Under the pieces are notes generated by a model. That model saw only the letters and a list, made by a program, of their open reading frames with translations. It did not search any database and had not been told where the DNA came from. 64,000 bases of DNA from a virus: positions 1 to 64,000 of the IMG/VR virus record IMGVR_UViG_3300025853_008930; one strand, given 5' to 3'. The position numbers were made by a program, and so were the translations under genes. This document shows, piece by piece, positions 32,172 through 63,192 of the stretch (the stretch's first letter is position 1; each line of letters begins with the position of its first letter).

Positions 32172-34721
32172 TTAATCCTCTTTTGGAGGTAATTCAAGAC
32201 TACTATATTTATCTTCATAAATATTCCATAATCCTTTATCAGCATCAGTATCAGCAGGTTTTTGTTCATAGCCTGTCCATGCTAGCCACATTTTCTTTCC
32301 TTTAACTTCAAGCATTCTAACATGAAGTTTAGTTTCAAACTTATTACCCTCTAAGAAATATTCGTGATAGCCTTCCTTTTGAACACCTAACTTAACATCA
32401 CCACTATCAATCAATTTACGCTTGGATATGTTCTTAGCAACAATAGCAGGGAACTTCCCTGCCTTGCCAAATAGTTCAAAGACATCATCTTGTGAATCTA
32501 ATCTAACCATCCAATTAATGCTTTCATCACCTAACTTCATTACTATGTTTAGGCTATCGTCGTCTCTAAGATATATTTTAAACTCGCCACTTCTGTATTT
32601 TTCAGGTGTCTCATATTCTTTCTTGATAGTGTCCATTAATATCTTATCATGCTCGGCAAACAACTTTTTTGTTTTAGCATCAAAGGATATTCCATCTCTA
32701 TTTTCAAACCAATCCTTAACTCTACTTTCTTTGCTTTCTAATATATCTTGATATTCTTTTTTATTATTCTTTACCAAAAAGTTGTGAACTTCTTTAGGAG
32801 TCTTTGCTCCTTTCTCTTTCAAGTAATTAAATATAGCAACAGTAAGTTTAGATTGTTTCGTTTTCATTATCTCTTCTGCTTGTTCTTTCCACAAGTCTAA
32901 ATCCATTAAGGCATTTTTAGCCATTAGATTATCTTGCTCAAAGCCATAGATAGTAAAACCATCCATATCGCTCTTAATTATAATGCTAGCCTCACCGTGA
33001 ATATGGTCAGTAATTACAATGCCTTTCTCTACTTCTTCTACATTATATTTGAGAGACTTGTCAGTATCATTGATTAGCATTTGTAATGTAACTAATTTAT
33101 CCGGTGTTTTACTTTCTGCAATCTCAGTTATCTTTGCGGAATAAACTACAGGCTTACCCTTGACTTCTTTTACCTTATCAATAGAGACTCTAACTACTTC
33201 TCCAACATCTGCTGAAACTTTAGTGTTAGTAGCACTACCAACTTCAAGATAGTTTACTCCTTCTATCTTTTCATCTCCTTCTTCAACCGGCCCTGCCCCT
33301 AATTTGTAAGAAAAGTTAGAACCGTTTTTCTTTTTATCAAGAACAATTAAATCTAGTTCTACAAATGGTTTCCAACGAATCCACTTAGGATTCTTTTTCG
33401 TTCCCAAGAAATATGTAGATGTAGAATCTTTAATCATAGCCCCTTCTGCTGTTGGTATTTCCATAATTTTCTTAGCATATTCTTCAACATCTTTTAGGCT
33501 GTCTGCAACCCTAGTATCTTTTTTAGATGGGAATGTTAAGTCCTCACTAGAATGTATAGAATAGTTGTTAAACATTATTTGCATTCTATTTTGTAGCGTA
33601 TCTTCCATGAGGTTTTCTTCATTGTGTCTCATAATGTCAAACACATGAATTCTAACCTTGCCTTCTCTTTTTCCCTCTAAGTATTCTGCGGCTTCTTTTC
33701 TTTTAAGAGAATCTTCTCCGTCAAATAAAACTAAAGAAGCATCTAAGATACAATCACCAAAATGTTTTTTCTTTAGTTCCTCAACTGCTTCTTTACACTT
33801 TGATGTAATGTCTTTTCCTGTATAATCATAGACTTTTATATTCTTATCTATTTTATGTAATTGAATTCTAAAACCATCGTATTTTTCTTGAACATAAAAC
33901 TCACCACTAAATCCCTTTAGTTCGTTCATATCTTCTATTGTAAATATTCTATACATTGGTTTGTTAGGGATTATGAAATCACTTTGGGCTTTTTCTTCAT
34001 CGGACTTCTTTTCTTTTAGAATAACTTTATCGTCTTGTTCCTTATCTTTAGTGGCTTTTTCTTCATCCATATCTGTATCTATGTCTTCTAATTCAGCCCA
34101 CTCTTCTTTAGTGTTTTTAGATAAGAATATTAATTCTAACATATTCATAGCGGCTTTTACTTTAGCCTCTACTTTTTTAGAGTCTTTACCATCACCATAA
34201 TGTTCTATAATGTAAAGTGCAACATCATCTACTTCTAGGTCTAATCCCATAAGTCCTTCTGTGATGTCATCCGGTTTCATATCTTTAATTGAATATGCTT
34301 CTTTTGGTAGTGCTTTATCATCTTCTCTAATAGCATAATGAACAAACTTAATCATAAGTTCGGGTGATTCTAATAATGCTTCTAATACATTGCCTTTGAA
34401 TTTTTTAGCGAAGGGGTCACTAACTTCTTCCGAAGAATACCTAAGTGCCTTTATTGCTTCATACAATTTTTCAGCATTATTTGTGCTAACATCGGAGACA
34501 TCATCCGCCTCTAATAAGTCATCATCAATATAATCCTTGAGTTCATTTGAAAGAGCATCCGTCATTTCATATGCGTCTTTAATTCTATTTACTGCGTTTC
34601 TCCATTTAGAACCGTATTCCTTTGGGTCGGTTCTTGCTGAAAGATAAGCGACTCTCGTTCTTTCAAAGAGTCTTAGAATATCTGTGGATATTGACTTATC
34701 CTTCTCAATAAGGAGAGGCAT
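32172..34721 (-). CDS. ATP-dependent DNA ligase with N- and C-terminal extensions
   Basis: EKYDG (motif I), FDIM, EGAMIK, WIRWKP, OB fold. Confidence 0.85.
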   Translation of the reverse strand: MPLLIEKDKSISTDILRLFERTRVAYLSARTDPKEYGSKWRNAVNRIKDAYEMTDALSNELKDYIDDDLLEADDVSDVSTNNAEKLYEAIKALRYSSEEVSDPFAKKFKGNVLEALLESPELMIKFVHYAIREDDKALPKEAYSIKDMKPDDITEGLMGLDLEVDDVALYIIEHYGDGKDSKKVEAKVKAAMNMLELIFLSKNTKEEWAELEDIDTDMDEEKATKDKEQDDKVILKEKKSDEEKAQSDFIIPNKPMYRIFTIEDMNELKGFSGEFYVQEKYDGFRIQLHKIDKNIKVYDYTGKDITSKCKEAVEELKKKHFGDCILDASLVLFDGEDSLKRKEAAEYLEGKREGKVRIHVFDIMRHNEENLMEDTLQNRMQIMFNNYSIHSSEDLTFPSKKDTRVADSLKDVEEYAKKIMEIPTAEGAMIKDSTSTYFLGTKKNPKWIRWKPFVELDLIVLDKKKNGSNFSYKLGAGPVEEGDEKIEGVNYLEVGSATNTKVSADVGEVVRVSIDKVKEVKGKPVVYSAKITEIAESKTPDKLVTLQMLINDTDKSLKYNVEEVEKGIVITDHIHGEASIIIKSDMDGFTIYGFEQDNLMAKNALMDLDLWKEQAEEIMKTKQSKLTVAIFNYLKEKGAKTPKEVHNFLVKNNKKEYQDILESKESRVKDWFENRDGISFDAKTKKLFAEHDKILMDTIKKEYETPEKYRSGEFKIYLRDDDSLNIVMKLGDESINWMVRLDSQDDVFELFGKAGKFPAIVAKNISKRKLIDSGDVKLGVQKEGYHEYFLEGNKFETKLHVRMLEVKGKKMWLAWTGYEQKPADTDADKGLWNIYEDKYSSLELPPKED

Positions 34722-52087: not shown

Positions 52088-52231
52088 CTACTTCATAGCA
52101 TATCTTTCTATTTCATCTATCGCTGTCTTAACATACTTAGGGGCTGACTTCATACTATCTCTTAGTGTTGCTAAGGCTTGAGCAATCATAGCCTCATCTA
52201 TATCTTCTTTAATTATATCTTGCCAATTCAT
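52088..52231 (-). CDS. 47-aa WxxILK-leader peptide
   Basis: Manual translation MNWQDIIKEDIDEAM...; GGTGA RBS. Confidence 0.6.
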   Translation of the reverse strand: MNWQDIIKEDIDEAMIAQALATLRDSMKSAPKYVKTAIDEIERYAMK

Positions 52232-52240
52232 TGTAATCAC

Positions 52241-52681
52241 CTAATATGAGCCTTGCCAATCAATGTCTCCTCTATACTCGAATTGGTTTTTATCTTTTTG
52301 ATTTTTCATATCAATGTAAACTGTAACACTCGAAACATTAAAACTAGGGCTTTCGTATGAGTCGGGCATATGATTATCTAATTTATCTGCATCAAACTCT
52401 ACATCATATTCAGTTTCGTCTTGCTCAAATGTATCTGTCTCTACAACATAATTAAAGTTTAGACGGACTTTACTCGCATAAGACCCAACACCCTTTACTC
52501 CCCAACTTCTAAGTTCAACATCAAATCTTCCGTCTACATATCCAGTTGCATTGTCAATGTATGAGTCATTTTTTTCTTCGGGAGCATTTTCTAAAAAAAC
52601 ACTTAGCATTCTGCCATCTATTTCCCAAGTAATGTCTGCCATTTTTTTAATATCTTCTTTTACTATATCTTTCCAACTCAT
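52241..52681 (-). CDS. WxxILK-leader acidic protein
   Basis: MSWKDIVKE. Confidence 0.6.
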   Translation of the reverse strand: MSWKDIVKEDIKKMADITWEIDGRMLSVFLENAPEEKNDSYIDNATGYVDGRFDVELRSWGVKGVGSYASKVRLNFNYVVETDTFEQDETEYDVEFDADKLDNHMPDSYESPSFNVSSVTVYIDMKNQKDKNQFEYRGDIDWQGSY

Positions 52682-53334
52682 TGTAATTTCTCCTGCATTC
52701 TTTTCTTAATGTCTAACCAAATTTCGGGATTGTTTTCAGCAAGCACTTCTTGGACAATTTGCATCTGTGCAAATATAATTGTGTCCTGTCTCTTATGTAT
52801 AAGTTTGCCCTTAAACTCCATAAGATATTTTAGCGACTCCCTAACTTCTTTCGCAAGTTTAGTTAGGCTATCTATTTCTCTAGGTTCTAAATCAACTGCA
52901 CCGAACAAGTCATCTAACTTGCTATCCAGTCTTTGTATGTTATTACTTAGCAAATCAATCTCATTAACTTCTTTCTTTGCTATTATTACTGCGGCTGACT
53001 CTTGAACAATCGGTGCTAGATGGTGTTTCATGTGTCGTTGCACTTGTTCCTTTGTAGTGTCTAATGCTTCGGCAATTGCTTCAGCACTTATTTCACCATT
53101 GGCTAAGTTTTCTTCGTAGTGCTTTCTCATTGGGTCTGTGCATAATACACACTTAGGATTACTACTATTGACATAATCTCCCATGTGATTTCTTTGGTGT
53201 TGTGCCGCAGTTCCACTTCTCCAATCGTGTCTTGAATCTAAATCATCACAAGAAACCTCACCGGCTTCCAACATTCTTTCAAGTTCTTCTCTATCTTCAT
53301 GTTGGCAAAAGCCACAACGCTTTCTTGTTACCAT
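52678..53334 (-). CDS. Putative terminase small subunit (tandem Zn-HTH plus coiled coil)
   Basis: Two CxxC...H...H units around HTH-like helices, then oligomerisation-like helices. Confidence 0.5.
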   Translation of the reverse strand: MVTRKRCGFCQHEDREELERMLEAGEVSCDDLDSRHDWRSGTAAQHQRNHMGDYVNSSNPKCVLCTDPMRKHYEENLANGEISAEAIAEALDTTKEQVQRHMKHHLAPIVQESAAVIIAKKEVNEIDLLSNNIQRLDSKLDDLFGAVDLEPREIDSLTKLAKEVRESLKYLMEFKGKLIHKRQDTIIFAQMQIVQEVLAENNPEIWLDIKKRMQEKLQ

Positions 53335-53348
53335 TTTAAATCACCTCA

Positions 53349-53708
53349 TCACTTGTAGAACTTGAAGGAAATCAAAGGTTCATTATCAAATTCTTCACTA
53401 TCAATAAAAACACTTTCCGGTTCTAAATCTCCTAAGAATCCATGTTTTACATTTTGGAAATCTATACCTAAAATTTGTATTAGATAGCCCTCCATATTTG
53501 TAAATTCAAATGGTTCAAAACCATCTTTAAATTCTACTTTGTGAACTTCTAATGCCATAGCAATAGTTTCGCTACTTCTATCAATATCCAAACTCCATGT
53601 AACAAAACATTTCTGTCCATCTTGGTCTTTGTATTTTTTACTATCTTTAGACATTACTCTACATTCAGTCGTCAGTTTATCTTGCTTTTTCAGTTCGTCT
53701 TTCCACAT
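53349..53708 (-). CDS. WxxILK-leader variant protein
   Basis: MWKDELKK. Confidence 0.55.
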   Translation of the reverse strand: MWKDELKKQDKLTTECRVMSKDSKKYKDQDGQKCFVTWSLDIDRSSETIAMALEVHKVEFKDGFEPFEFTNMEGYLIQILGIDFQNVKHGFLGDLEPESVFIDSEEFDNEPLISFKFYK

Positions 53709-53709
53709 T

Positions 53710-53991
53710 TTAAACACCTAATTTTTTCTCCATACTTTCGACGAACTTTCTTAAAGAGGCAATTAGATTATCTATTTGCCTTATAGGAATATTATCATCA
53801 ATAAATCTATCTAGTCTTTTATTTTCTTTCTTTTCCATCAAGTCTTCTTTGTAGTCCAAAAGAGACTCTATCATGCTCTCGGCTCTTGTAATTACTGAAC
53901 CCTTTTCTGCTCTTAGCATGTCTTCGTGCATACTTGACATATTTTGCCTAAAGGCATCAAACTTGTCTTCTTTTAGTATGTTCTTCCACAT
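53710..53991 (-). CDS. WxxILK-leader protein
   Basis: MWKNILKE. Confidence 0.6.
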   Translation of the reverse strand: MWKNILKEDKFDAFRQNMSSMHEDMLRAEKGSVITRAESMIESLLDYKEDLMEKKENKRLDRFIDDNIPIRQIDNLIASLRKFVESMEKKLGV

Positions 53992-53995
53992 TTTA

Positions 53996-55123
53996 TCAAC
54001 TCCATAAATATTCATGCCATGACTTTTGTATATCATCCTGTGGAACTTTTAATCCTTTTAGATTTAGATGTTCGCCCCACGCTAACTTCTTTGATTTACC
54101 CTTTCCAACAACCGCTACAATCAGTGATGACATAGCAGTTGCTTGAAAGGGCTTTAATGAAAATGTTTTGATTTGACCCGCAGGTGGTTCTATACCTGCT
54201 ATCTTTGAAAGTGCTTCTTTACTTGTCTTTTTGTTATCCAATGTAAACTTCATACCCGAAAAAGTGCTTGCCATTTCTACCAACTTAGGTATTCCATTTT
54301 CTTTAAACAAGGCTTTTCTTTTTAGCAATCCCAATACATGCTTTCTAACAGGTGGGAAAATTGCCAACTTAGAAGGTAATTTAACTTGTAAGTGCATATT
54401 TTCTATTGCTTTATTTGATTCTGCTAAAGCAATCTTCAATATATCTTTTAATCCAACTTTGATTAAATCACCTCTACCAAAAAGTGCTTGAGCCAAAGGT
54501 GGATTAGCAGTATTTGGTGTATCGCTATACCATGTCGGAGGTGCTTTCTTTCCATATTTTTTCTTATACCATTCATTTGCATAGTGGCCAAAAACCTTGT
54601 CTTTTTCTTTACCTATGGCATTACCATCAGCATCCGACTTTGCAGGAAAATTAAATACAGTATTTCTAGGATTTAATGTGCTTGTTGCTTCTTCAAATCC
54701 TTCAATGGCTTCTTGAAATTCTTGTAGTTTTTTTACATGGCTTACTAACAGAATCTTATCTTCTTTGAATTCTTCCATAAATTCTTCTATGTCATCTAAT
54801 AGAGTAAATGCTCCTGTGCTTCCCCTATTTGGCGACCTATCCCTTCTATATCCGCTAGTTACATGCTCTTTCAATTGTAAATATAGATTAGCAGGGTGAG
54901 GCTGTCCACTCTTAGTATCTATTTGTCCAACCTTCTTTCCCTCTCTAGGTTTTCTAATTCTTCTACCTTCACTAAGTAATTTTTTTCTACCTATACCTTC
55001 ACACTTCTTAACCCAAGCCTCATACTCATCAATAAACTTGAATGAGCCTCTAACTTCAATATCGGTGCTTCCAACCCTAATCACGGACTTTTTCTTTTCG
55101 TCTTTTCTTACCACGCTTTCCAC
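53996..55123 (-). CDS. Hypothetical basic protein
   Basis: 375-aa ORF ending IQKSWHEYLWS. Confidence 0.6.
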   Translation of the reverse strand: MESVVRKDEKKKSVIRVGSTDIEVRGSFKFIDEYEAWVKKCEGIGRKKLLSEGRRIRKPREGKKVGQIDTKSGQPHPANLYLQLKEHVTSGYRRDRSPNRGSTGAFTLLDDIEEFMEEFKEDKILLVSHVKKLQEFQEAIEGFEEATSTLNPRNTVFNFPAKSDADGNAIGKEKDKVFGHYANEWYKKKYGKKAPPTWYSDTPNTANPPLAQALFGRGDLIKVGLKDILKIALAESNKAIENMHLQVKLPSKLAIFPPVRKHVLGLLKRKALFKENGIPKLVEMASTFSGMKFTLDNKKTSKEALSKIAGIEPPAGQIKTFSLKPFQATAMSSLIVAVVGKGKSKKLAWGEHLNLKGLKVPQDDIQKSWHEYLWS

Positions 55124-55472
55124 CTCCGTATTCTATATTGAATAATTCAGGATTAGCCCCATGACCACCAAAAGAAACGCCTCCGGCTTCTTTTTCAAAA
55201 GTATCACTAGTGTTTTCTACAATGTCGTTGAACTCTTCCATGAAACTATTAAATTGTTTTTTCATAGATTTGGCTAATGCTTCCTCATCTAATATTTCAT
55301 CGTATGGGTCTGTGTGTAAGTAGCCCAAATAGTCACTCAAACCCATAAAATTACCGCTATCAAACTCAAGTAAACCTAATAGAGCCTTATGGTGTTTTTC
55401 TAAAGCCCTTTTGAGTTTGACAGCAACCTCCTCAAGTTCTTGGTTGCGCTTCAATACTTCTTCCCAACTCAT
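55077..55472 (-). CDS. WxxILK-leader protein
   Basis: MSWEEVLKR. Confidence 0.6.
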   Translation of the reverse strand: MSWEEVLKRNQELEEVAVKLKRALEKHHKALLGLLEFDSGNFMGLSDYLGYLHTDPYDEILDEEALAKSMKKQFNSFMEEFNDIVENTSDTFEKEAGGVSFGGHGANPELFNIEYGGGKRGKKRRKEKVRD

Positions 55473-55484
55473 GTCAAACCCTCT

Positions 55485-55784
55485 TTAATCATCTAAAGCA
55501 ATAGACATGATTTTTTCTATCTCTTTTTCGAGTCCTTTTATTGTTCTATTCATTGACTCTCTTTTTTCAGCATCAAAATCTTTACTCATCGTTTGTAATT
55601 CCTTGATTGTTTTCTTTAGTTCATCTACTCTTTTCAAAAAGTAACTCATGTCTCTTTTCTCTTGGCCTCTAACCGCTTTGCCCTTTAGTCTTCTTCTTTC
55701 CAAAGCCCTTTGCTTTCTTCTGCGAATTCTATCTTTCTCTCGTTCAAAACGACTATCTTCTTTAATTATGTTTTCCCAGTTCAT
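55485..55784 (-). CDS. WxxILK-leader protein
   Basis: MNWENIIKE. Confidence 0.6.
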   Translation of the reverse strand: MNWENIIKEDSRFEREKDRIRRRKQRALERRRLKGKAVRGQEKRDMSYFLKRVDELKKTIKELQTMSKDFDAEKRESMNRTIKGLEKEIEKIMSIALDD

Positions 55785-55785
55785 A

Positions 55786-56013
55786 TCAAGCCCTCGCTAA
55801 ACTTCCAAGTATTCTCTTAATGCTATCCATAGTAGTCTTATGCAATCTATGATATTCTCCGGCAATGTCTTCAAACTCTTCAGCATCAATCATTTCTTCA
55901 CCTTGATACTGTCTAACAATTTCATCCAACTCTTTCAAAACATCCCTTTGTCTGCCAAAGTTATCAATGGCATTTTGCGTGGTGTTACGCTTTAGAATAC
56001 TTTGCCATGCCAT
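55786..56013 (-). CDS. WxxILK-leader protein
   Basis: MAWQSILKR. Confidence 0.6.
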   Translation of the reverse strand: MAWQSILKRNTTQNAIDNFGRQRDVLKELDEIVRQYQGEEMIDAEEFEDIAGEYHRLHKTTMDSIKRILGSLARA

Positions 56014-56015
56014 AA

Positions 56016-56465
56016 TTAACTCTCCATCGCATTCTTATCTTGGAAACCCCTACTAAATCCCTGCTCAAAGTCTATTCGCTTAACTTCTTTAACCGCACTA
56101 GTAGTAGGGTCGTCTTTTATTTCTTTAAATCTCATAATAGCCAAATCTACAAAAGATTCTATTCCTTCGGGAGTCAATCGCATTATAGTATCATTTTTTG
56201 GACTGTTGCCCCCGAAAAGGTCTACTGTTACAAAGGGCGTATCATCTTCCCCTGTGTCAATAAAAGCAATTTCATATGCCTTATATGAATGAGGGTCTTG
56301 TAATTTGCCGTGAGGAATTGACCCTAATCTATCTCCTGCTACCACGCTTAATTCTAAATCGGGTGCAATTTCAGTTCTTGAGTGATAGCCTCTCCTGTCA
56401 TTATACGGCTTAAACTCAATATCTTGGAATCTAAATTGTTTCTTAAGAATATCTTGCCAAGTCAT
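56016..56465 (-). CDS. WxxILK-leader protein
   Basis: MTWQDILKK. Confidence 0.6.
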   Translation of the reverse strand: MTWQDILKKQFRFQDIEFKPYNDRRGYHSRTEIAPDLELSVVAGDRLGSIPHGKLQDPHSYKAYEIAFIDTGEDDTPFVTVDLFGGNSPKNDTIMRLTPEGIESFVDLAIMRFKEIKDDPTTSAVKEVKRIDFEQGFSRGFQDKNAMES

Positions 56466-56818
56466 TTCTTACCCACCTGTCTGCCTTCTCCTGAAAATGG
56501 ATTATATGGAATATTTCTCGCTTTTCTTCTAGCCCTCATAGGCATTGAGTTAGTTTTATTACCTGCCATTCCAAACCCTACCTTTTTTCCTTTTCTTTGC
56601 TTAGTTTTACCCTTTGGTTGTGGTTGTCCAAAACTAGGTGAATCTGTTACATTACCAAACTCTTCTTCTAGTTCTTGCATTTCTGCATCTCTAACCTTTT
56701 TAGAACTTCGTCGTTCAACCCCAAGTTTCTTTTTTTGACGGTCATCTATTTTCCTTTCTATTGCTCTCAACCTACCTTCGGTAAAATATGGCTTTTTTAG
56801 TATATCTTGCCAAGTCAT
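56462..56818 (-). CDS. WxxILK-leader basic protein
   Basis: MTWQDILKK. Confidence 0.6.
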   Translation of the reverse strand: MTWQDILKKPYFTEGRLRAIERKIDDRQKKKLGVERRSSKKVRDAEMQELEEEFGNVTDSPSFGQPQPKGKTKQRKGKKVGFGMAGNKTNSMPMRARRKARNIPYNPFSGEGRQVGKK

Positions 56819-56922
56819 TTCTTACCACCTGTAACAAAACACTTCTTTGACTTTGCCTCTTTCTCATCAACTTCTTTTGACTTTGCATCAAACCACTTAT
56901 CGAGATAACTACACCTTGTCAT
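56815..56922 (-). CDS. 35-aa peptide
   Basis: Manual translation MTRCSYLDKWFD...; GGTGA RBS and ATGA overlap. Confidence 0.45.
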   Translation of the reverse strand: MTRCSYLDKWFDAKSKEVDEKEAKSKKCFVTGGKK

Positions 56923-56923
56923 A

Positions 56924-57265
56924 TTATTCACCTTCGGGGCCATAATCTCCTACATATCGAGCAAGTCTTAAAATTTCTTCAGCCACATCTCTAGCCTCAA
57001 ATTCCAAACCTGCTAATTTATCATAGAACTCTATTATTTTATTCTCATCATAATCTCTATTATCCCTGTTGTAGTCTCTTACTTTTTCAAAGAGTTTTAT
57101 GTAGTAATCTCTTGCGTCTACAGCCGGATTTTTTTCGTGCATTTCCATTAATTCAAATTTTGTTCTCACTAAACCTCTTATTAATTTAGACCTTGAGTCC
57201 ATAGACCTTTCTCGTCTATCAATTGCATCTCCTAAATCTTTTCTTATTTCGTCTTTCCATGTCAT
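56924..57265 (-). CDS. WxxILK-leader variant protein
   Basis: MTWKDEIRK. Confidence 0.6.
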   Translation of the reverse strand: MTWKDEIRKDLGDAIDRRERSMDSRSKLIRGLVRTKFELMEMHEKNPAVDARDYYIKLFEKVRDYNRDNRDYDENKIIEFYDKLAGLEFEARDVAEEILRLARYVGDYGPEGE

Positions 57266-57274
57266 ATTATTCAC

Positions 57275-57421
57275 CTACTGTAATTTTTTCAACATTAGTG
57301 CCGCTTTAGAACAAACTTTCCTTAGTAGGTCTGCATCATACATATCTTGTTTACTTGCATCCTCTAAATAATCTATCACATGCTCAAGCCCTTTTTGTTT
57401 AATTATATCTTCCCATGTCAT
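57275..57421 (-). CDS. 48-aa WxxILK-leader peptide
   Basis: Manual translation MTWEDIIKQKGLEHV...; GGTGA RBS. Confidence 0.6.
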   Translation of the reverse strand: MTWEDIIKQKGLEHVIDYLEDASKQDMYDADLLRKVCSKAALMLKKLQ

Positions 57422-57463
57422 ATTATTCACCTTTTATTTTAAACGCTTTTTTCAAAAATTTTT

Positions 57464-57841
57464 CTAGGATTTTTTTCTACCGGCTTCTTTCATTTCATCA
57501 CGATATTCAAATAGAGTTTCCTGTATTGCTTTTTCTATTGCTTGTGTTATTTTATAAAAGCGATTATTAGGGAATGAAAAACCCACAACAGGGTAGGCTT
57601 CAAACTTGTCTGCAAAATAAAGATAGGATTTATGTAATATCTCTCGTATATTTGCATAATCTAAATAATCAACCCCATCAACTATCTCAAAGGGGGTTTT
57701 TTCATTAAGATTATAATGTTCTCTACCATCAAAAATAATACTTTTCGCCTCTTCTCGGCTCATTGAACCACCCGCCTTTCTTCTAGCATCTATGTTTTCA
57801 CTATGCTCACTCGTTTTTTTAACGGTATCTTTCCAATTCAT
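57464..57841 (-). CDS. WxxILK-leader variant protein
   Basis: MNWKDTVKK. Confidence 0.6.
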   Translation of the reverse strand: MNWKDTVKKTSEHSENIDARRKAGGSMSREEAKSIIFDGREHYNLNEKTPFEIVDGVDYLDYANIREILHKSYLYFADKFEAYPVVGFSFPNNRFYKITQAIEKAIQETLFEYRDEMKEAGRKKS

Positions 57842-58363: not shown

Positions 58364-58432
58364 AAAGCCATATGGTTGTAGAGCAACCGATTAACAAGCA
58401 TATGGTTCACTTTGCGGAACCCGCCATATATA
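58364..58432 (+). promoter_or_regulatory. Array repeat R1 (divergent, doubled core) plus TATA
   Basis: CCATATGGTTG-TAGAG-CAACC, then GCATATGGTTC-ACTTTGCG-GAACC and CATATATA. Confidence 0.7.
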
Positions 58433-58452
58433 CTTTACAGGAATGAGTAGTC

Positions 58453-58836
58453 ATGTCACTGAACATAGTATATCAAAGAAGCATAAAAGAGGAGAACGAA
58501 GACAGTATTGAGATAAGTTGCTGTAAAGAAGGCAACGAATATTGGGCATATGCCTTAAAAGTCCTTACTTCAATAGCCAACAAGTCAAACACACGGCCAC
58601 ACATCTATTTTGATTGGGGAAAGAGTAGTAAATGCACCATGAGAGTAGCGGGTTCTTGGAATGCCGAAAGCATGAGTAGTTTCCTAAGAAAAGCATCAAG
58701 CAAGAGAGCAATCGAAAGCGGTCTTTTCAATGGTCGCAGAACTTGGGTTTTCAATCATAAAACTGAAGAATACGAGCGAGTGAATGAAGAAGATGTAGAT
58801 GCTTTACCTAGAGATACCTACGCTATGATGGAGTAG
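58453..58836 (+). CDS. Cassette 1 hypothetical protein (leaderless)
   Basis: ATG 53 nt after the repeat ATAT. Confidence 0.7.
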   Translation: MSLNIVYQRSIKEENEDSIEISCCKEGNEYWAYALKVLTSIANKSNTRPHIYFDWGKSSKCTMRVAGSWNAESMSSFLRKASSKRAIESGLFNGRRTWVFNHKTEEYERVNEEDVDALPRDTYAMME

Positions 58837-58844
58837 ATAAATAC

Positions 58845-58895
58845 GGTTAAAAAAACCCTGCAAGGTTTCGGCCTTGTGGGGTTTTACCTTTTTTT
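58845..58895 (+). terminator. Hairpin/T-tract terminator
   Basis: AAAACCCTGCAAGG-TTTCGG-CCTTGTGGGGTTTT followed by ACC and a T run. Confidence 0.8.
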
Positions 58896-58901
58896 GGTCA
58901 A

Positions 58902-58993
58902 GGTTTGGTGCTTACGCTACGCTCTAAATTCATTATATAAATTACATTTATTATATGAATTTACACCAAACCATATGGTTCACTTTCGGAACC
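58902..58993 (+). repeat. Array repeat R2 (double hairpin/promoter)
   Basis: GGTTTGGTG..CACCAAACC-ATAT-GGTTC-ACTTTCG-GAACC. Confidence 0.9.
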
Positions 58994-59024
58994 CAGAATA
59001 TATATCTTCCATCAAGGAGTATGT

Positions 59025-59228
59025 GTCTAGCCGGCATAATAGACAAGAACAGACCGGAGTTAAGCGGCCTATCGGCTTAACACTATGGCCTAATGACGAG
59101 AGGAAACTTGGAATAGAGGTAAAGTGGCTAGAAAAACATGGCGATGGATATGAACGCCCGTATCTAACAAATCAAGTGTTTTTTGCAGGACTAGGGGATA
59201 TAGGCTCTCCCCTAGTCCAAGTTTTTTT
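59025..59228 (+). ncRNA. Cassette 2: putative ~200-nt structured RNA
   Basis: No self-contained ORF; stems TCTAGCC/GGCTAGA and GTTAAGC/GCTTAAC; 11-bp terminal hairpin plus T run. Confidence 0.5.
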
Positions 59229-59233
59229 ATCGA

Positions 59234-59300
59234 GGTTTGGTGTCGTTATATATTATAACGGTGAATGTGACACCAAACCATATGGTATGCTTTCAATACC
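59234..59300 (+). repeat. Array repeat R3
   Basis: GGTTTGGTGTC..GACACCAAACC-ATAT-GGTAT-GCTTTCA-ATACC (compensatory changes in the small stem). Confidence 0.9.
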
Positions 59301-59331
59301 CGTTTCATATAGTTGTATAGTAATAGTATGC

Positions 59332-59619
59332 ATGTCAGTAGTACAAAAACCGATTAGGCCTAATATTGAAGATTACCAAATTGATAGTGAAAATGATTGG
59401 ATTGAAACATTTTGGAGAGATATGGAAACATATAACAATGAAATGAGATTGTGGAATTTTCGCCAACAGTGGTTAAGTGAATATGGAGTAACTGAAGAAA
59501 TGTGGATTCAAACACCTGTTGAACTTCAGCGAATTATGGTCGAGTTACATCATGAATGTGAGAAGCAAAATCAACTCATGTATGACCTTGAGGAATGGCG
59601 TGACTCAATGCCCATTTGA
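59332..59619 (+). CDS. Cassette 3 hypothetical protein (leaderless, 95 aa)
   Basis: MSVVQKPIRP...; ATG 52 nt after the repeat ATAT. Confidence 0.7.
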   Translation: MSVVQKPIRPNIEDYQIDSENDWIETFWRDMETYNNEMRLWNFRQQWLSEYGVTEEMWIQTPVELQRIMVELHHECEKQNQLMYDLEEWRDSMPI

Positions 59620-59629
59620 GGCATTAGTC

Positions 59630-59679
59630 GGTCAAAAAACCTCCCTTGCTTTCGGGCTTGGGAGGTTTTACCTTTTTTT
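59630..59679 (+). terminator. Hairpin/T-tract terminator
   Basis: AAAACCTCCC..TTCG..GGGAGGTTTT followed by ACC and a T run. Confidence 0.8.
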
Positions 59680-59684
59680 ATTGA

Positions 59685-59750
59685 GGTTTGAGGTCGTTTT
59701 AATTAACTTACTAGATAGTAACCTCAAACCATATGGTTCACTTTAGGAAC
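59685..59750 (+). repeat. Array repeat R4
   Basis: GGTTTGAGGT..ACCTCAAACC-ATAT-GGTTC-ACTTTAG-GAAC. Confidence 0.9.
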
Positions 59751-59798
59751 ACGAATTATATATTATATCTATATTAGAGGGTAGAAAGAGTGATTAAA

Positions 59799-60200
59799 AT
59801 GGTGTGCGAAGAATGTGGAAGAGGATTGAGATATAATACAGAAAGCGGTTTATGTAGTATGTGCATGAATGATTTAATAGACGAGACGCTAGAGCGTTTT
59901 ATGCAAGAAGAGTATAAGGCAGAAGGCGAAAAGGTGTTTAAATGCCCTAAGTGTAATCGCTTAGACTGTATTCAAGGAGACTTTGTTTTGAATGATTGGG
60001 AAGAGTTTAAACCTATACTAAAACCGACAAATACTGATATGTGGTGTCAATATATGTATAAGGGTAAAATGGTTCAAGGTAACACTTTACTGGATGAAAT
60101 TCAGGAGTTAAGAATGGAATGCAAGTATTGTGGATATGACTTTGACGGCCAAGACGACGAACTTAACAACAACACAGTTATTACTCATGGAGGTGTCTAA
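59799..60200 (+). CDS. Cassette 4 zinc-finger protein
   Basis: CEEC, CSMC, CPKC and CKYC pairs; GAGTGA RBS. Confidence 0.7.
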   Translation: MVCEECGRGLRYNTESGLCSMCMNDLIDETLERFMQEEYKAEGEKVFKCPKCNRLDCIQGDFVLNDWEEFKPILKPTNTDMWCQYMYKGKMVQGNTLLDEIQELRMECKYCGYDFDGQDDELNNNTVITHGGV

Positions 60201-60202
60201 TA

Positions 60203-60385
60203 ATGATAGTAATAACAGGTTGGGCAGTTTGGGATAATGAGGCATGGAGGACAGATTTTCGGAACATATACCCCACAAAGGAACTTGCTATGGAAGCGGC
60301 TAAAAAGCATTATAGTTACTTAGGAGACACAGAAGAAGACTATGGCGACCACATGATAAGTCCGGTTGAAATAACGGTTCATTGA
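60203..60385 (+). CDS. Cassette 4 small protein
   Basis: GGAGGT RBS; IYPTKELAMEAA. Confidence 0.65.
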   Translation: MIVITGWAVWDNEAWRTDFRNIYPTKELAMEAAKKHYSYLGDTEEDYGDHMISPVEITVH

Positions 60386-60392
60386 GTTAAAC

Positions 60393-60442
60393 GGTAAAAA
60401 AACCCCTTGTTTTTAGGAGCAAGGGGTTTTTACCTTTTTTTT
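60393..60442 (+). terminator. Hairpin/T-tract terminator
   Basis: AAAAACCCCTTG..CAAGGGGTTTTT followed by ACC and a T run. Confidence 0.8.
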
Positions 60443-60447
60443 ATTGA

Positions 60448-60512
60448 GGTTTGAGGTCGTTTTATACTTATTACTGTTAGTAACCTCAAACCATATGGTT
60501 CACTTTCGGAAC
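60448..60512 (+). repeat. Array repeat R5
   Basis: GGTTTGAGGT..ACCTCAAACC-ATAT-GGTTC-ACTTTCG-GAAC. Confidence 0.9.
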
Positions 60513-60544
60513 TCGGATTATATATCGAACAGGGTGGAGTATGC

Positions 60545-61023
60545 ATGTCGGGAGTCATGAACCGGCAGGGATTGACCGAACACCCTATTGAACGGGGGTA
60601 AGGTGCAATGTTCCGAGTAGTTTCGGCTTATGTAATTATGATGCTCTAATGAGTGAGTTTTTACCTCTAAGAAAAAGTCCTTGAACCTCAAAAGGGGAGT
60701 TATTACTAGTAACTTGGATAACATTGGCAGTATGGCTCTTAAGAATCAAAGAATCAAGAGAGCGTTCAAAGTGAGTGCGACCCAATCGTATCATACTTGA
60801 AGATACCCAACTCTTCATCCCATCCTATTCCAATGGCTATTAGTGGCCATAACACCATTGAGAAACAAAGGCGAAAGTCAAAGTTGAAAATGTAAGGCGG
60901 CAGAAAATAGAAAGAGATTGTAAGTTATCTAAATACTAGTTAGTTAGTGACCTCTCATCAAACCTACTAAGCATCACGCATTCCCTTGCTTTGAACGAGT
61001 AGCCGGAGTTTCTCACTTTTTTT
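60545..61023 (+). ncRNA. Cassette 5: putative ~480-nt structured RNA
   Basis: Bounded by promoter and T-tract; no + strand ORF of 60 aa or more; several stems including TGAGAAAC/GTTTCTCA and GGC-GAAA-GTC. Confidence 0.55.
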
Positions 61024-61028
61024 ATCGA

Positions 61029-61100
61029 GGTTTGGCATCGTTATTATTATGAATTACTTTACCTATGGTAATGCCAAACCATATGGTTCACTTTGAGAAC
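61029..61100 (+). repeat. Array repeat R6
   Basis: GGTTTGGCAT..ATGCCAAACC-ATAT-GGTTC-ACTTTGA-GAAC. Confidence 0.9.
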
Positions 61101-61174
61101 ACGGTTCTTATACCGAATCATAGGTAGTAGTCGCTTCAAGGGGTTGAAGTGTAATTATCATTGAGGTGAAAATT

Positions 61175-61651
61175 ATGAATTTGGAAAAACTAGAAACTAA
61201 TAGAAATAACATACGAACATGGATGAAGGAAAACGAAAGCCCGCTTAATGATGCTTTAGAGGGTCTACTCACAGCATCGGAGTTGGCTAAAACTGATGAT
61301 GAGGCGGTCAAGTATTGGTCGTCAATTCGTTCACTTTGTGGCAACATGAGTCCTTCTCCTGTTAGAAAAGGTGTGCAATCAAAATACAGTGTCGAGCAAT
61401 TGGCAGTATTAGACGCTATTGGAACAGAAGTTGATGAGGCTTCTGTCCGCTACCACAACGACGGTATTATGTCTAAGGTATTGTTTTCTCACGGTAAATC
61501 CGGTGGAAAAACTATGCTTGCAGAAGTATTTGGTAAGACTATGAGAAATATGACCATCAGCAAACTTAAGAAAAAGTTAGATGCAGGAATATGGGATGGA
61601 ACTCTAGCCGGTTTAGACTCCTTGACCGAAACAACGGAGGATAATGAGTGA
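61175..61651 (+). CDS. Cassette 6 protein, paralogue of 62460-62969
   Basis: YWSSIRSLCGNMSPSPVRKG...WDGTL; GAGGTGA RBS. Confidence 0.75.
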   Translation: MNLEKLETNRNNIRTWMKENESPLNDALEGLLTASELAKTDDEAVKYWSSIRSLCGNMSPSPVRKGVQSKYSVEQLAVLDAIGTEVDEASVRYHNDGIMSKVLFSHGKSGGKTMLAEVFGKTMRNMTISKLKKKLDAGIWDGTLAGLDSLTETTEDNE

Positions 61652-61686
61652 TTAACATTTCAACCCCTTGTTGCCCCCACTCCCGA

Positions 61687-61782
61687 TTAGGCCGAATAGT
61701 GAAACTACTCTTACAGTGCAGTAAATAAGCACTTCTTAAGAGATTTGAAAAAATAGTTTCACTATTCGGTCTAAGTTTTTTT
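61687..61782 (+). ncRNA. Conserved 3' RNA element, copy 1
   Basis: 21-bp outer stem (one G-U) enclosing CTCTTA-CAGTGC..GCACTTCT-TAAGAG-ATTTG-AAAAAA. Confidence 0.65.
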
Positions 61783-61788
61783 ATTTAG

Positions 61789-61859
61789 GGTTTGATGCGG
61801 CCTTCGGCCTAAATGTTTAAAGAACATTTCATCAAACCATATGGTTCACTTTAAGAACC
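61789..61859 (+). repeat. Array repeat R7
   Basis: GGTTTGATG..CATCAAACC-ATAT-GGTTC-ACTTTAA-GAACC. Confidence 0.9.
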
Positions 61860-61890
61860 CGATTGATATATCTATTGGCATGGAGATAAC

Positions 61891-62238
61891 ATGCGAAAAA
61901 TAACACAAGACGCAATAAGAGCATTTGAACAGCATAAGAAATTTAAGCGAAGCAATACCGAAGTTGAAGTAAGTGGAAGCGGATTATTTGCCGAACTAAA
62001 ACTACATGGGAATACAATCGCCAAAAGTGGAATATTTGAAGGTTTGATGATTTCATCAGCCGGATGGAATACCAACACCACAAAAGAACGCTTAAACGGA
62101 TTTGATGGAGTTCACATCCATCAAAAAGACTTCACATGGTATTTGAATGGCCGTGAATGGACAGGCGAATGGGTTGATGTTGATGATTTCACCAAACACG
62201 GCCATTATTGTCAATTCGTTGGCGGAACATCATTCTAA
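61891..62238 (+). CDS. Cassette 7 hypothetical phage protein
   Basis: ATG 52 nt after the repeat ATAT; LHGNTIA...GWNTNTTKERLN. Confidence 0.7.
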   Translation: MRKITQDAIRAFEQHKKFKRSNTEVEVSGSGLFAELKLHGNTIAKSGIFEGLMISSAGWNTNTTKERLNGFDGVHIHQKDFTWYLNGREWTGEWVDVDDFTKHGHYCQFVGGTSF

Positions 62239-62270
62239 TTATGAACTGATATAGTTTGAGGACTATAACT

Positions 62271-62309
62271 GCCTTTCTCGACCCTTCGGGGTCGGGATTG
62301 GCTTTTTTT
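62271..62309 (+). terminator. Hairpin/T-tract terminator
   Basis: CGACCC-TTCG-GGGTCG followed by a T run. Confidence 0.8.
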
Positions 62310-62311
62310 GG

Positions 62312-62380
62312 GGTTGTGAGTAATGTATTTTATAATACTAGGGGAGTATTACTCACAACCATATGGTTCACTTTGAGAAC
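62312..62380 (+). repeat. Array repeat R8
   Basis: GGTTGTGAGTAAT..ATTACTCACAACC-ATAT-GGTTC-ACTTTGA-GAAC. Confidence 0.9.
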
Positions 62381-62459
62381 TTGATTCATATACTATTAAG
62401 GAAATAGTAGTTGCTTCACGGGGTATGAAGTAAACTTACAAACATCGGAGTGATAAAAA

Positions 62460-62969
62460 ATGATGGAATATAGTAAAATAATTAGCAAAACAGACGATAT
62501 ATTGACTTGGCTTGATGTCAATGATGCAGGTGCTTTGGATAGTGCCATTCGAGGCATCATTGCAGTTGCTAGAGTCGAAGGACAGACAGAAAAACAATAC
62601 GGTAACTATTGGGGTAGTATTCGCCAAATGTGCGGCAACCTCCCAAACTCACCTATCCGCAAAGGAACTCAACCGTCACTACCTGTCGAAGCACAAGCGG
62701 TTGTGGATTCTGTAATGACTCAAGTAACAGATGCTTTTGCGGGTATTACTGAAAACACTGGACTACTTCTTGAAGTTATCCTACCTTTCAGAAATACAAC
62801 CGGCAAAGGCTTTGAGTCTATGGATGACCTAGCCGCATATATGGCAGGTCGAGCCCGTGATGCATTAATTAAGGCTCATAAAGATGGTCGTTGGGATGGA
62901 ACTCTTAACGACGGACTAACAGGTATGACCCCTCCTCAACCTGCATCAAAGAAGGAGGCTAGTAAGTAA
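62460..62969 (+). CDS. Cassette 8 protein, paralogue of 61175-61651
   Basis: YWGSIRQMCGNLPNSPIRKG...WDGTL; GGAGTGA RBS. Confidence 0.75.
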   Translation: MMEYSKIISKTDDILTWLDVNDAGALDSAIRGIIAVARVEGQTEKQYGNYWGSIRQMCGNLPNSPIRKGTQPSLPVEAQAVVDSVMTQVTDAFAGITENTGLLLEVILPFRNTTGKGFESMDDLAAYMAGRARDALIKAHKDGRWDGTLNDGLTGMTPPQPASKKEASK

Positions 62970-63017
62970 GGCTAACCGATTACCCCGTGTTGCCCCTCTA
63001 CTAAATTAATTCAACAA

Positions 63018-63119
63018 ATAGCACCCAAAGGACATTACAACTCATACAGTCAAGAGAGTTCACGACTTCTTATGAGATAGTAAAAAATAAAGTGTCCTTT
63101 GGGTGTCTATGCTTTTTTT
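63018..63119 (+). ncRNA. Conserved 3' RNA element, copy 2
   Basis: Outer stem CACCCAAAGGACAT/GTGTCCTTTGGGTG enclosing CTCATA-CAGTC..GACTTCT-TATGAG-ATAGT-AAAAAA. Confidence 0.65.
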
Positions 63120-63125
63120 ATGCAG

Positions 63126-63192
63126 GGTTTGAGGCGTAGAATAATATTCAACAAAAGAATGTGCCTCAAACCATATGGTTCACTTTCGGAAC
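63126..63192 (+). repeat. Array repeat R9
   Basis: GGTTTGAGGC..GCCTCAAACC-ATAT-GGTTC-ACTTTCG-GAAC. Confidence 0.9.

Follow-up and report, generated by a model that had tools for sequence, protein, structure and literature searches.

A conserved RNA element with a lineage-specific outer stem follows two paralogous genes of a virus with a probably archaeal host

The IMG/VR virus record IMGVR_UViG_3300025853_008930 is a linear sequence of 80.7 kb with an estimated completeness of 86%. Its first 64 kb were analysed here and are referred to as the window. Eight cassettes lie on the + strand between 58.4 and 63.2 kb, and two of these, cassettes 6 and 8, encode small proteins that an initial annotation of this DNA had taken to be paralogues, as their 32% identity (E 7e-23) bears out. 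Each of the two genes is followed by a structured RNA element of about 95 nt, which is found only at these two cassettes: the remaining six cassette ends (58.4-63.8 kb) are plain GC hairpins followed by a T-run, in agreement with the initial annotation. That annotation went on to suggest that the protein and the RNA form a guide-like ribonucleoprotein (RNP) or an RNA antitoxin pair. The parts of the two cassettes that matter here are listed below. The elements are called el1 and el2, and the helix that joins the two untranslated regions (UTRs) of each message is called the clamp.

61133..61157, + strand: clamp 5′ strand of paralogue 1, starting GCUUC; complementary to 61649-61674 (16 bp, 1-nt bulge, 5 bp)
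61175..61651, + strand: paralogue 1, 158 aa, all-helical, of an uncharacterised family
61649..61674, + strand: clamp 3′ strand of paralogue 1, including the stop codon and ending GUUGC
61687..61707, + strand: el1 outer stem 5′ arm, from the fold; identical in orthologues
61708..61753, + strand: el1 core, made of P2 CUCUUA/UAAGAG, a 1x3 internal loop, P3 AGUGC/GCACU, a 9-nt loop and an A-rich 3′ bulge ending in A6
61754..61774, + strand: el1 outer stem 3′ arm, from the fold
61776..61782, + strand: T7 run in the sequence, the presumed transcript end of cassette 6; the next junction hairpin and promoter come after it
62413..62439, + strand: clamp 5′ strand of paralogue 2, made of GCUUCACGGGGUA, an internal loop and ACUUAC; complementary to 62962-62993
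62463..62969, + strand: paralogue 2, 168 aa
62962..62993, + strand: clamp 3′ strand of paralogue 2, spanning the stop codon and ending GUUGC
63018..63035, + strand: el2 outer stem 5′ arm, from the fold
63041..63087, + strand: el2 core, made of P2 CUCAUA/UAUGAG, a 1x3 internal loop, P3 AGUC/GACU, a 12-nt loop and an A-rich bulge with A6
63091..63110, + strand: el2 outer stem 3′ arm, from the fold, with a bulged U near its base
63113..63119, + strand: T7 run in the sequence, the presumed transcript end of cassette 8

Folding confirmed the two elements at 61687-61774 and 63018-63110 on the + strand, each with the shared core held within an outer stem, as first described. El1 folds at -43.5 kcal/mol (z -6.8) and el2 at -37.3 kcal/mol (z -4.6), and none of 200 shuffled sequences folded as well. 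The outer stem of el1 has 21 bp including one G.U pair, and that of el2 has 4 bp, a bulged U and 14 bp including one U.G. The G.U and U.G pairs in the stems of el1, el2 and a further type, el3, would be A.C mismatches on the other strand, which bears out the earlier remark that such pairs favour + strand RNA. The core pattern has exactly two matches in the 80.7-kb genome and none in the reversed control. The whole window gave no Rfam match at the gathering score; in an E-value search the best match on the element was a plant miRNA model, with 19.9 bits against a gathering score of 100, and no snoRNA model scored on it. It is concluded that the element is a real, new RNA motif, without a match in Rfam and tied to one viral gene family.

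Family DNA was gathered from a close relative (L003/L004), three viral loci (L009-L011) and 71 marine metagenome loci, and more was added by pattern scans and a covariance model. There are five canonical types of element, each with its own outer stem, namely el1, el2, L017, L114 and L132a, and two degenerate copies. Those outside the window, in related marine viral contigs, are the following.

L017:642-749: canonical copy
L114:590-703, - strand: canonical copy
L132:953-1064: canonical copy (L132a)
L132:1697-1794: degenerate copy, long stem kept, core decayed
L114, after the gene resembling window paralogue 2: degenerate copy, long stem kept, core decayed

All five canonical variants are followed by a run of T7-T9, and the degenerate copy L114a has no T-run. 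Each of the seven copies comes immediately 3′ of a family gene. Scans with the covariance model gave no further copy in four whole family-carrying viral records, 282 kb of family loci and 601 kb of pattern-matched IMG/VR loci, and a fifth viral record (G004) gave zero matches. When the strict core pattern was run against IMG/VR it found, beyond the close relative and L114, only chance matches in coding DNA; a looser pattern found at least 113 stretches, and the covariance model scored none of the 75 new loci among the matches listed. These scans thus turned up no motif standing independently of the protein family. In the other direction the strict co-occurrence envisaged by the initial annotation does not hold: a plain GC hairpin and T-run is found at the same position in 43 of the 54 distinct family proteins or genes with enough flanking sequence. 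It follows the conserved GUYGC at the end of the clamp and precedes the junction of the next cassette, and the covariance model scores none of those loci. The genes that carry the element fall in two deep groups of the protein tree (window paralogue 1 with L114, and window paralogue 2 with L017), and the plain clade is compact. A single origin of the element is possible despite the two deep branches.

The element evolves slowly and is inherited with its gene. Within orthologue groups the elements are 97-100% identical, compared with 87-95% for the open reading frames (ORFs) and 77-92% for their third codon positions. All of the substitutions seen in orthologues are located in the apical loop, at the bulged U or in the junctions, or else change U.G to U-A (L015), a pattern that fits what would be expected of a folded RNA under selection. 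The 12-27-nt spacer between clamp and element is not conserved, and in L012 and L015 an altogether different sequence stands in its place ahead of el2. Compared between element types, the cores share 62-82% identity in lineages with proteins of 30-55% identity, and the arms share 22-50%, except for the 3′ arms of el3 and el4 (65%). The outer stems had been described as unrelated in sequence. This is correct for most of their length, but not for the lowest 3-4 bp, where UAG/CUA with a bulged U or a G.U pair is conserved in all variants.

In the alignment to the covariance model, 14 of the 21 pairs have changes in both partners, and pairing holds in 88.5% of the cells as against 34-53% with slid partners. 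For four of five measures of covariation, none of 500 shuffles reached the observed value. The compensatory changes in the core that were named in the initial annotation reappear here, with pair 35/64 being A-U or U-A, and pair 42/55 being G-C, C-G or A-U. An alignment by MAFFT and RNAalifold missed the outer stem, with the arms out of register, and the model alignment leaves the el1 rows one column off.

The RNA feature that is common to the whole family (window, L009-L082, L114 and L132) is the clamp, a covarying helix between 5′ UTR and 3′ UTR that encloses the ORF. Its 5′ strand begins at GCUUC, approximately at +1, and its 3′ strand reaches from the stop codon as far as GUYGC. Over 11 ungapped positions in 34 distinct sequences 97.3% of the positions are paired, compared with 38-49% when the strands are slid. 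There are 2-5 pair types per position, and many G.U pairs that are valid on the + strand only. One compensatory change is between CACGGGG/CCCCGUG in the window and CACAGGG/CCCUGUG in relatives. Two features are conserved, an internal loop of two by two U/U(C) and a G-C/C-G end, before which 24 of the 34 sequences have U-A. The length ranges from 11 to 28 bp, and in many loci reaches 25-28 bp. By closing the message, the clamp could serve to protect its ends or to allow re-initiation. Given that it shows the same combination of variable sequence and conserved pairing as the adjacent element, compensatory drift would be enough to explain the variable outer stems with no guide function.

A local hairpin, (A/G)UUCNN-loop-NNGAAUAGGA, is seen in the 5′ UTR just before the Shine-Dalgarno sequence. 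It covaries, and is found in L009-L074, the clade with plain terminators (for example L009:2440-2480), and in none of the lineages with a 3′ element. It may be a switch, because it overlaps the inner end of the clamp.

The protein family has about 160 aa. A profile search of 1.84 billion representatives gave 100 clusters at E < 1e-3, mostly of 150-190 aa, which have in common the motifs W..IR, P.RRG..S.LP, HGKxGG and RWDGT, and an acidic tail. The AlphaFold model is all-helical and confident (pLDDT 90.5). Searches of Pfam, PHROGs, PDB sequences, Foldseek PDB, VIA wide and the ESM Atlas gave nothing informative, and fold searches matched only generic three-helix bundles, with Z up to 8.2. A third and distant member of the family is present at L141 (reverse strand 844-1314, record G001), outside any cassette array, with neither the CCATATGG promoter nor a visible 5′-3′ helix. 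The second paralogue of G001 was located in L114, not through L141.

Each of the eight cassettes carries the motif CCATATGGTTCACTTT, which is absent from the rest of the genome. The hairpin and T-run of the previous cassette are followed by a variable hairpin, the motif CCATATGGTTCACTTT and then a TATA-like box. A perfect 12-bp palindrome, AACCATATGGTT, is present in each cassette promoter (window 58398-63186) at a fixed distance from the TATA-like box, which suggests that it may be the operator for a viral factor. The promoters of the two paralogue cassettes, and a gene that accompanies them, are located as follows.

61077..61104, + strand: promoter of the paralogue 1 cassette, with the palindrome AACCATATGGTT and then a TATA-like box; the motif was found 8 times, all in 58.4-63.2 kb
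62357..62384, + strand: promoter of the paralogue 2 cassette
Window 61891-62238; L114 (reverse complement 2602-2973); L132:6-221: gene with a Kyano_Gp96 domain

The distance from motif to ATG is 54-55 nt in three of the simple cassettes, and the distance from motif to the G of GCUUC, the 5′ end of the clamp, is a fixed 54 nt in both paralogue cassettes. We infer an archaeal-type start about 20 nt past the box, such that the simple cassettes would be leaderless and the messages of the paralogues would begin at GCUUC. The Kyano_Gp96-domain gene (Pfam E 8e-18) accompanies both paralogues in three viruses. The gene order around it differs, and it therefore appears that cassettes are shuffled as units between related viruses. 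In the close relative, a stretch (L003:4416-4686) homologous to window 60826-61100, the end of the cassette that has no ORF, sits between cassettes 7 and 8, and a stretch that resembles it comes after the degenerate element in L114.

The window also encodes a portal, an SU10-like capsid protein and a tail tube protein, and an ATP-dependent DNA ligase domain lies within an 848-aa protein of the structural block (window 32172-34721). Beyond the window the record encodes a thermosome-type chaperonin, a protein with a TFIIB zinc ribbon and a helix-turn-helix, ThiF, a UvrD helicase and a second ATP-dependent ligase.

Window 32172-34721; L120:13601-15133, L120:10434-11945 and L120:7848-8684: the ligase, chaperonin and TFIIB-zinc-ribbon set

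The combination of a thermosome subunit with two ligases, one being in the structural module, is described for the group A magroviruses of Marine Group II archaea (PMC5434244). The virus looks magrovirus-like, in that its ligase, thermosome and TFIIB genes would fit this group, and its host is probably archaeal. The match to the two-ligase and thermosome combination makes the Poseidoniales setting assumed by the initial annotation a plausible one. Searches of a phage collection with both DNA and protein found no match. A bacterial sigma-70 type was considered for the cassette promoter, and was dropped in view of the thermosome, the TFIIB-type zinc ribbon, the two DNA ligases and the leaderless spacing. 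Elsewhere in the window (52088-57841, - strand), many unrelated late-strand ORFs open with the same peptide, M-x-W-x-D-I-L/I-K-K, and this common N-terminus may be a targeting or processing tag.

Several known types of structure were compared with the element and rejected. No k-turn, bulge-helix-bulge, C/D or H/ACA motif was present on inspection. The C (RUGAUGA) and D (CUGA) boxes of archaeal guide sRNAs are absent from the element sequences, and P2 is fully Watson-Crick paired. A tRNA-like acceptor end (N-CCA) was rejected since after GUYGC the family reads ACCC, CCCC, GCCA or CACA, and in the plain clade the C-run after GUYGC is the 5′ arm of the terminator itself. An integron attC site would have the reverse layout, the tip of the element being conserved and most of its outer stem variable; no systematic integrase search was made. 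Mimicry of the gene's own ribosome-binding region by the A-rich junction was rejected because 41-402 of 500 shuffles aligned equally well.

The reading that we favour, to which we give a probability of about 0.55, is that each element is the 3′-terminal domain of the mRNA of its own paralogue and acts in cis. The long outer stem and T-run would replace the plain hairpin and T-run that end most family genes, and would most likely mark and protect the 3′ end of the transcript. Selection on the outer stem would act on pairing only, which would be why compensatory changes have made its sequence diverge between lineages. The tip is a conserved module of about 46 nt, comprising P2 CUCWUA/UAWGAG, a 1x3 internal loop, a P3 of 4-5 bp, a loop rich in purines and, on the 3′ side, an A-rich bulge of 11-15 nt with six consecutive A. 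The sequence constraint on this module makes it a probable recognition site for a protein, whether the product of the cassette itself or a factor of host or virus. Such a factor would tune mRNA stability or translation, jointly with the 5′-3′ UTR helix that closes the message.

A number of points weigh against this proposal. The transcript 3′ end at the T-run is presumed, and in archaea a T-run can terminate transcription without a hairpin, so that what is here called a terminator hairpin may in an archaeal host really be an end-protection hairpin. The stem of 17-21 bp is far longer than termination needs. The binder of the tip is putative, and sequence and fold searches with the family protein found no known fold or RNA-binding domain. 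Finally, the lineages L132b and L114a have lost most of the core (and L114a has no T-run), so the module is dispensable in some settings.

An alternative is that the element is cut from the 3′ end of the mRNA to give a stable small RNA acting in trans, perhaps as an RNP with the paralogue protein. This reading, which includes the idea of targeting by the variable stem, is one that we think unlikely. It would account for the strict linkage to one protein family, the conserved core beside a variable part, and the extreme conservation within orthologue groups, which extends to the outer stem; and the non-conserved spacer of 12-27 nt would allow the element to be a unit separable from the clamp. 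On the other hand, in no variant is the variable segment of about 20 nt free to act as a guide, each arm being paired to the other. A search for targets gave no better support: exact 20-mers of the el1 and el2 arms had no matches in 185,579 prokaryote species genomes (imperfect matches were not searched), and in IMG/VR a 16-mer of el1 had 10 unrelated matches at chance level, the longest being 19 nt within an ORF of 1194 aa (el2 to el6 were not searched there). Within the virus's own genome nothing longer than 10 nt matched the arms, except for one 17-nt stretch with 2 mismatches (E 2.7). Moreover, most family genes lack the element, and the fold searches show no nuclease or known RNA-binding fold in the protein. 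The guide version is only a small part of this reading.

A more specific form, in which the upstream-encoded protein would bind a separable viral RNA in a specific complex, so that the lineage-specific stem and conserved tip make a cognate RNA for each paralogue, we regard as doubtful. If true, marine archaeal viruses would have a small protein-RNA system of a new kind, for instance for marking or regulating its own message or for action on the RNAs of hosts or rivals.

The long duplex might instead be a processing site for a double-strand- or structure-specific endonuclease, which would cut in the A-rich bulge and so provide the message upstream with a protective hairpin. With its 17-21 bp, a large asymmetric bulge on the 3′ side and a place between cistrons, the stem does resemble the RNase III sites of phage T7. 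However, each cassette has its own promoter and T-run and so there is no polycistronic precursor that needs cutting, and the host is probably an archaeon. By analogy with T7 such a site could be imagined here, but we think it improbable. Still less probable is an element that works as DNA, forming a cruciform or hairpin for recombinase, replication or packaging machinery and so helping cassettes to shuffle. Cassettes are indeed shuffled between related viruses, and the inverted repeats are long, but the G.U pairs work on the + strand only, the substitutions match a single-stranded fold, the element goes with a single gene family and not with cassette boundaries at large, and the junction hairpins before each promoter are better candidates. 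As to an RNA antitoxin that neutralizes a toxic paralogue protein in the manner of type III toxin-antitoxin systems, a small protein gene adjoining a structured RNA is all that recommends it, and it is scarcely credible given that 43 of 54 family genes have no such RNA, that the tandem repeats of ToxIN-like antitoxin RNA are not found (there is a single copy per gene, 3′ of it), and that sequence and fold searches found no toxin-like or nuclease fold in the protein (PADLOC was not searched).

Both of the functions first suggested, guide RNA and RNA antitoxin, are thus not supported. With an ordinary hairpin and T-run at the same site in 43 of 54 family genes, the paralogue protein evidently does not need the element, and two lineages have let the core decay while keeping the long stem.

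Poseidoniales count among the surface ocean's most abundant archaea, and we know of nothing on message control by their viruses. The family presents an unusually clear mRNA architecture backed by covariation, in which the 5′ end is joined to the stop-codon region by a helix, and to which one deep branch adds a conserved structured module on the transcript-end hairpin. An RNA motif absent from Rfam, together with a protein family of about 100 clusters that has a confident but unmatched fold, provides a testable case for mRNA stability, closed-loop translation and protein-RNA recognition in archaea. It is also a reminder that a constant core plus a variable stem can come from ordinary compensatory drift, without any guide function.

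Comparison with known systems helps to place the element. Like crRNA, omega RNA and bridge RNA, it has a conserved structured part and about 20 nt that differ from copy to copy, with the gene of a dedicated protein alongside; unlike these guide RNAs, its variable part is an internal duplex for which exact-match searches found no target, its protein has no known effector fold, and most members of the family have no such RNA. Phages of the T4 type carry gene cassettes flanked by promoters and stem-loops (PeSL). The array described here resembles these in being a set of small genes, each with a repeated promoter motif and a stem-loop, that are shuffled between related viruses, but its promoters look archaeal, with a TATA-like box and leaderless geometry, and the comparison covers the array and not the 95-nt element. 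The early mRNAs of phage T7 have RNase III processing hairpins, which are long imperfect duplexes between genes. The element shares with them a long imperfect intergenic duplex, an asymmetric internal loop and an expected protective 3′ hairpin, and differs in that the cassettes are monocistronic, the host is probably archaeal, and cleavage here is only hypothetical.

A functional interaction between 5′ UTR and 3′ UTR was described in haloarchaeal mRNAs on genetic grounds (Brenneis and Soppa 2009; PMC2636863), in a paper that does not use the term "base pair". The archaeal setting and the joint action of both UTRs on one message are similar, whereas the present family has a direct covarying helix of 11-28 bp that encloses the ORF, with the element outside it. 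The nearest comparison for the element is with the hairpin and U-run that end bacterial, phage and archaeal-virus mRNAs. In both there is a stable stem-loop followed by a T-run, at the end of the gene and before the next promoter, and in evolution the element is interchangeable with plain GC hairpins at the same site. The stem of the element is, however, 17-21 bp rather than 6-13 bp, it carries a conserved 46-nt sub-hairpin and an A-rich bulge, it is limited to one gene family, and termination by it is only presumed. The element looks best filed as an elaborated transcript-end structure that is inherited with its gene, rather than as a new kind of system.

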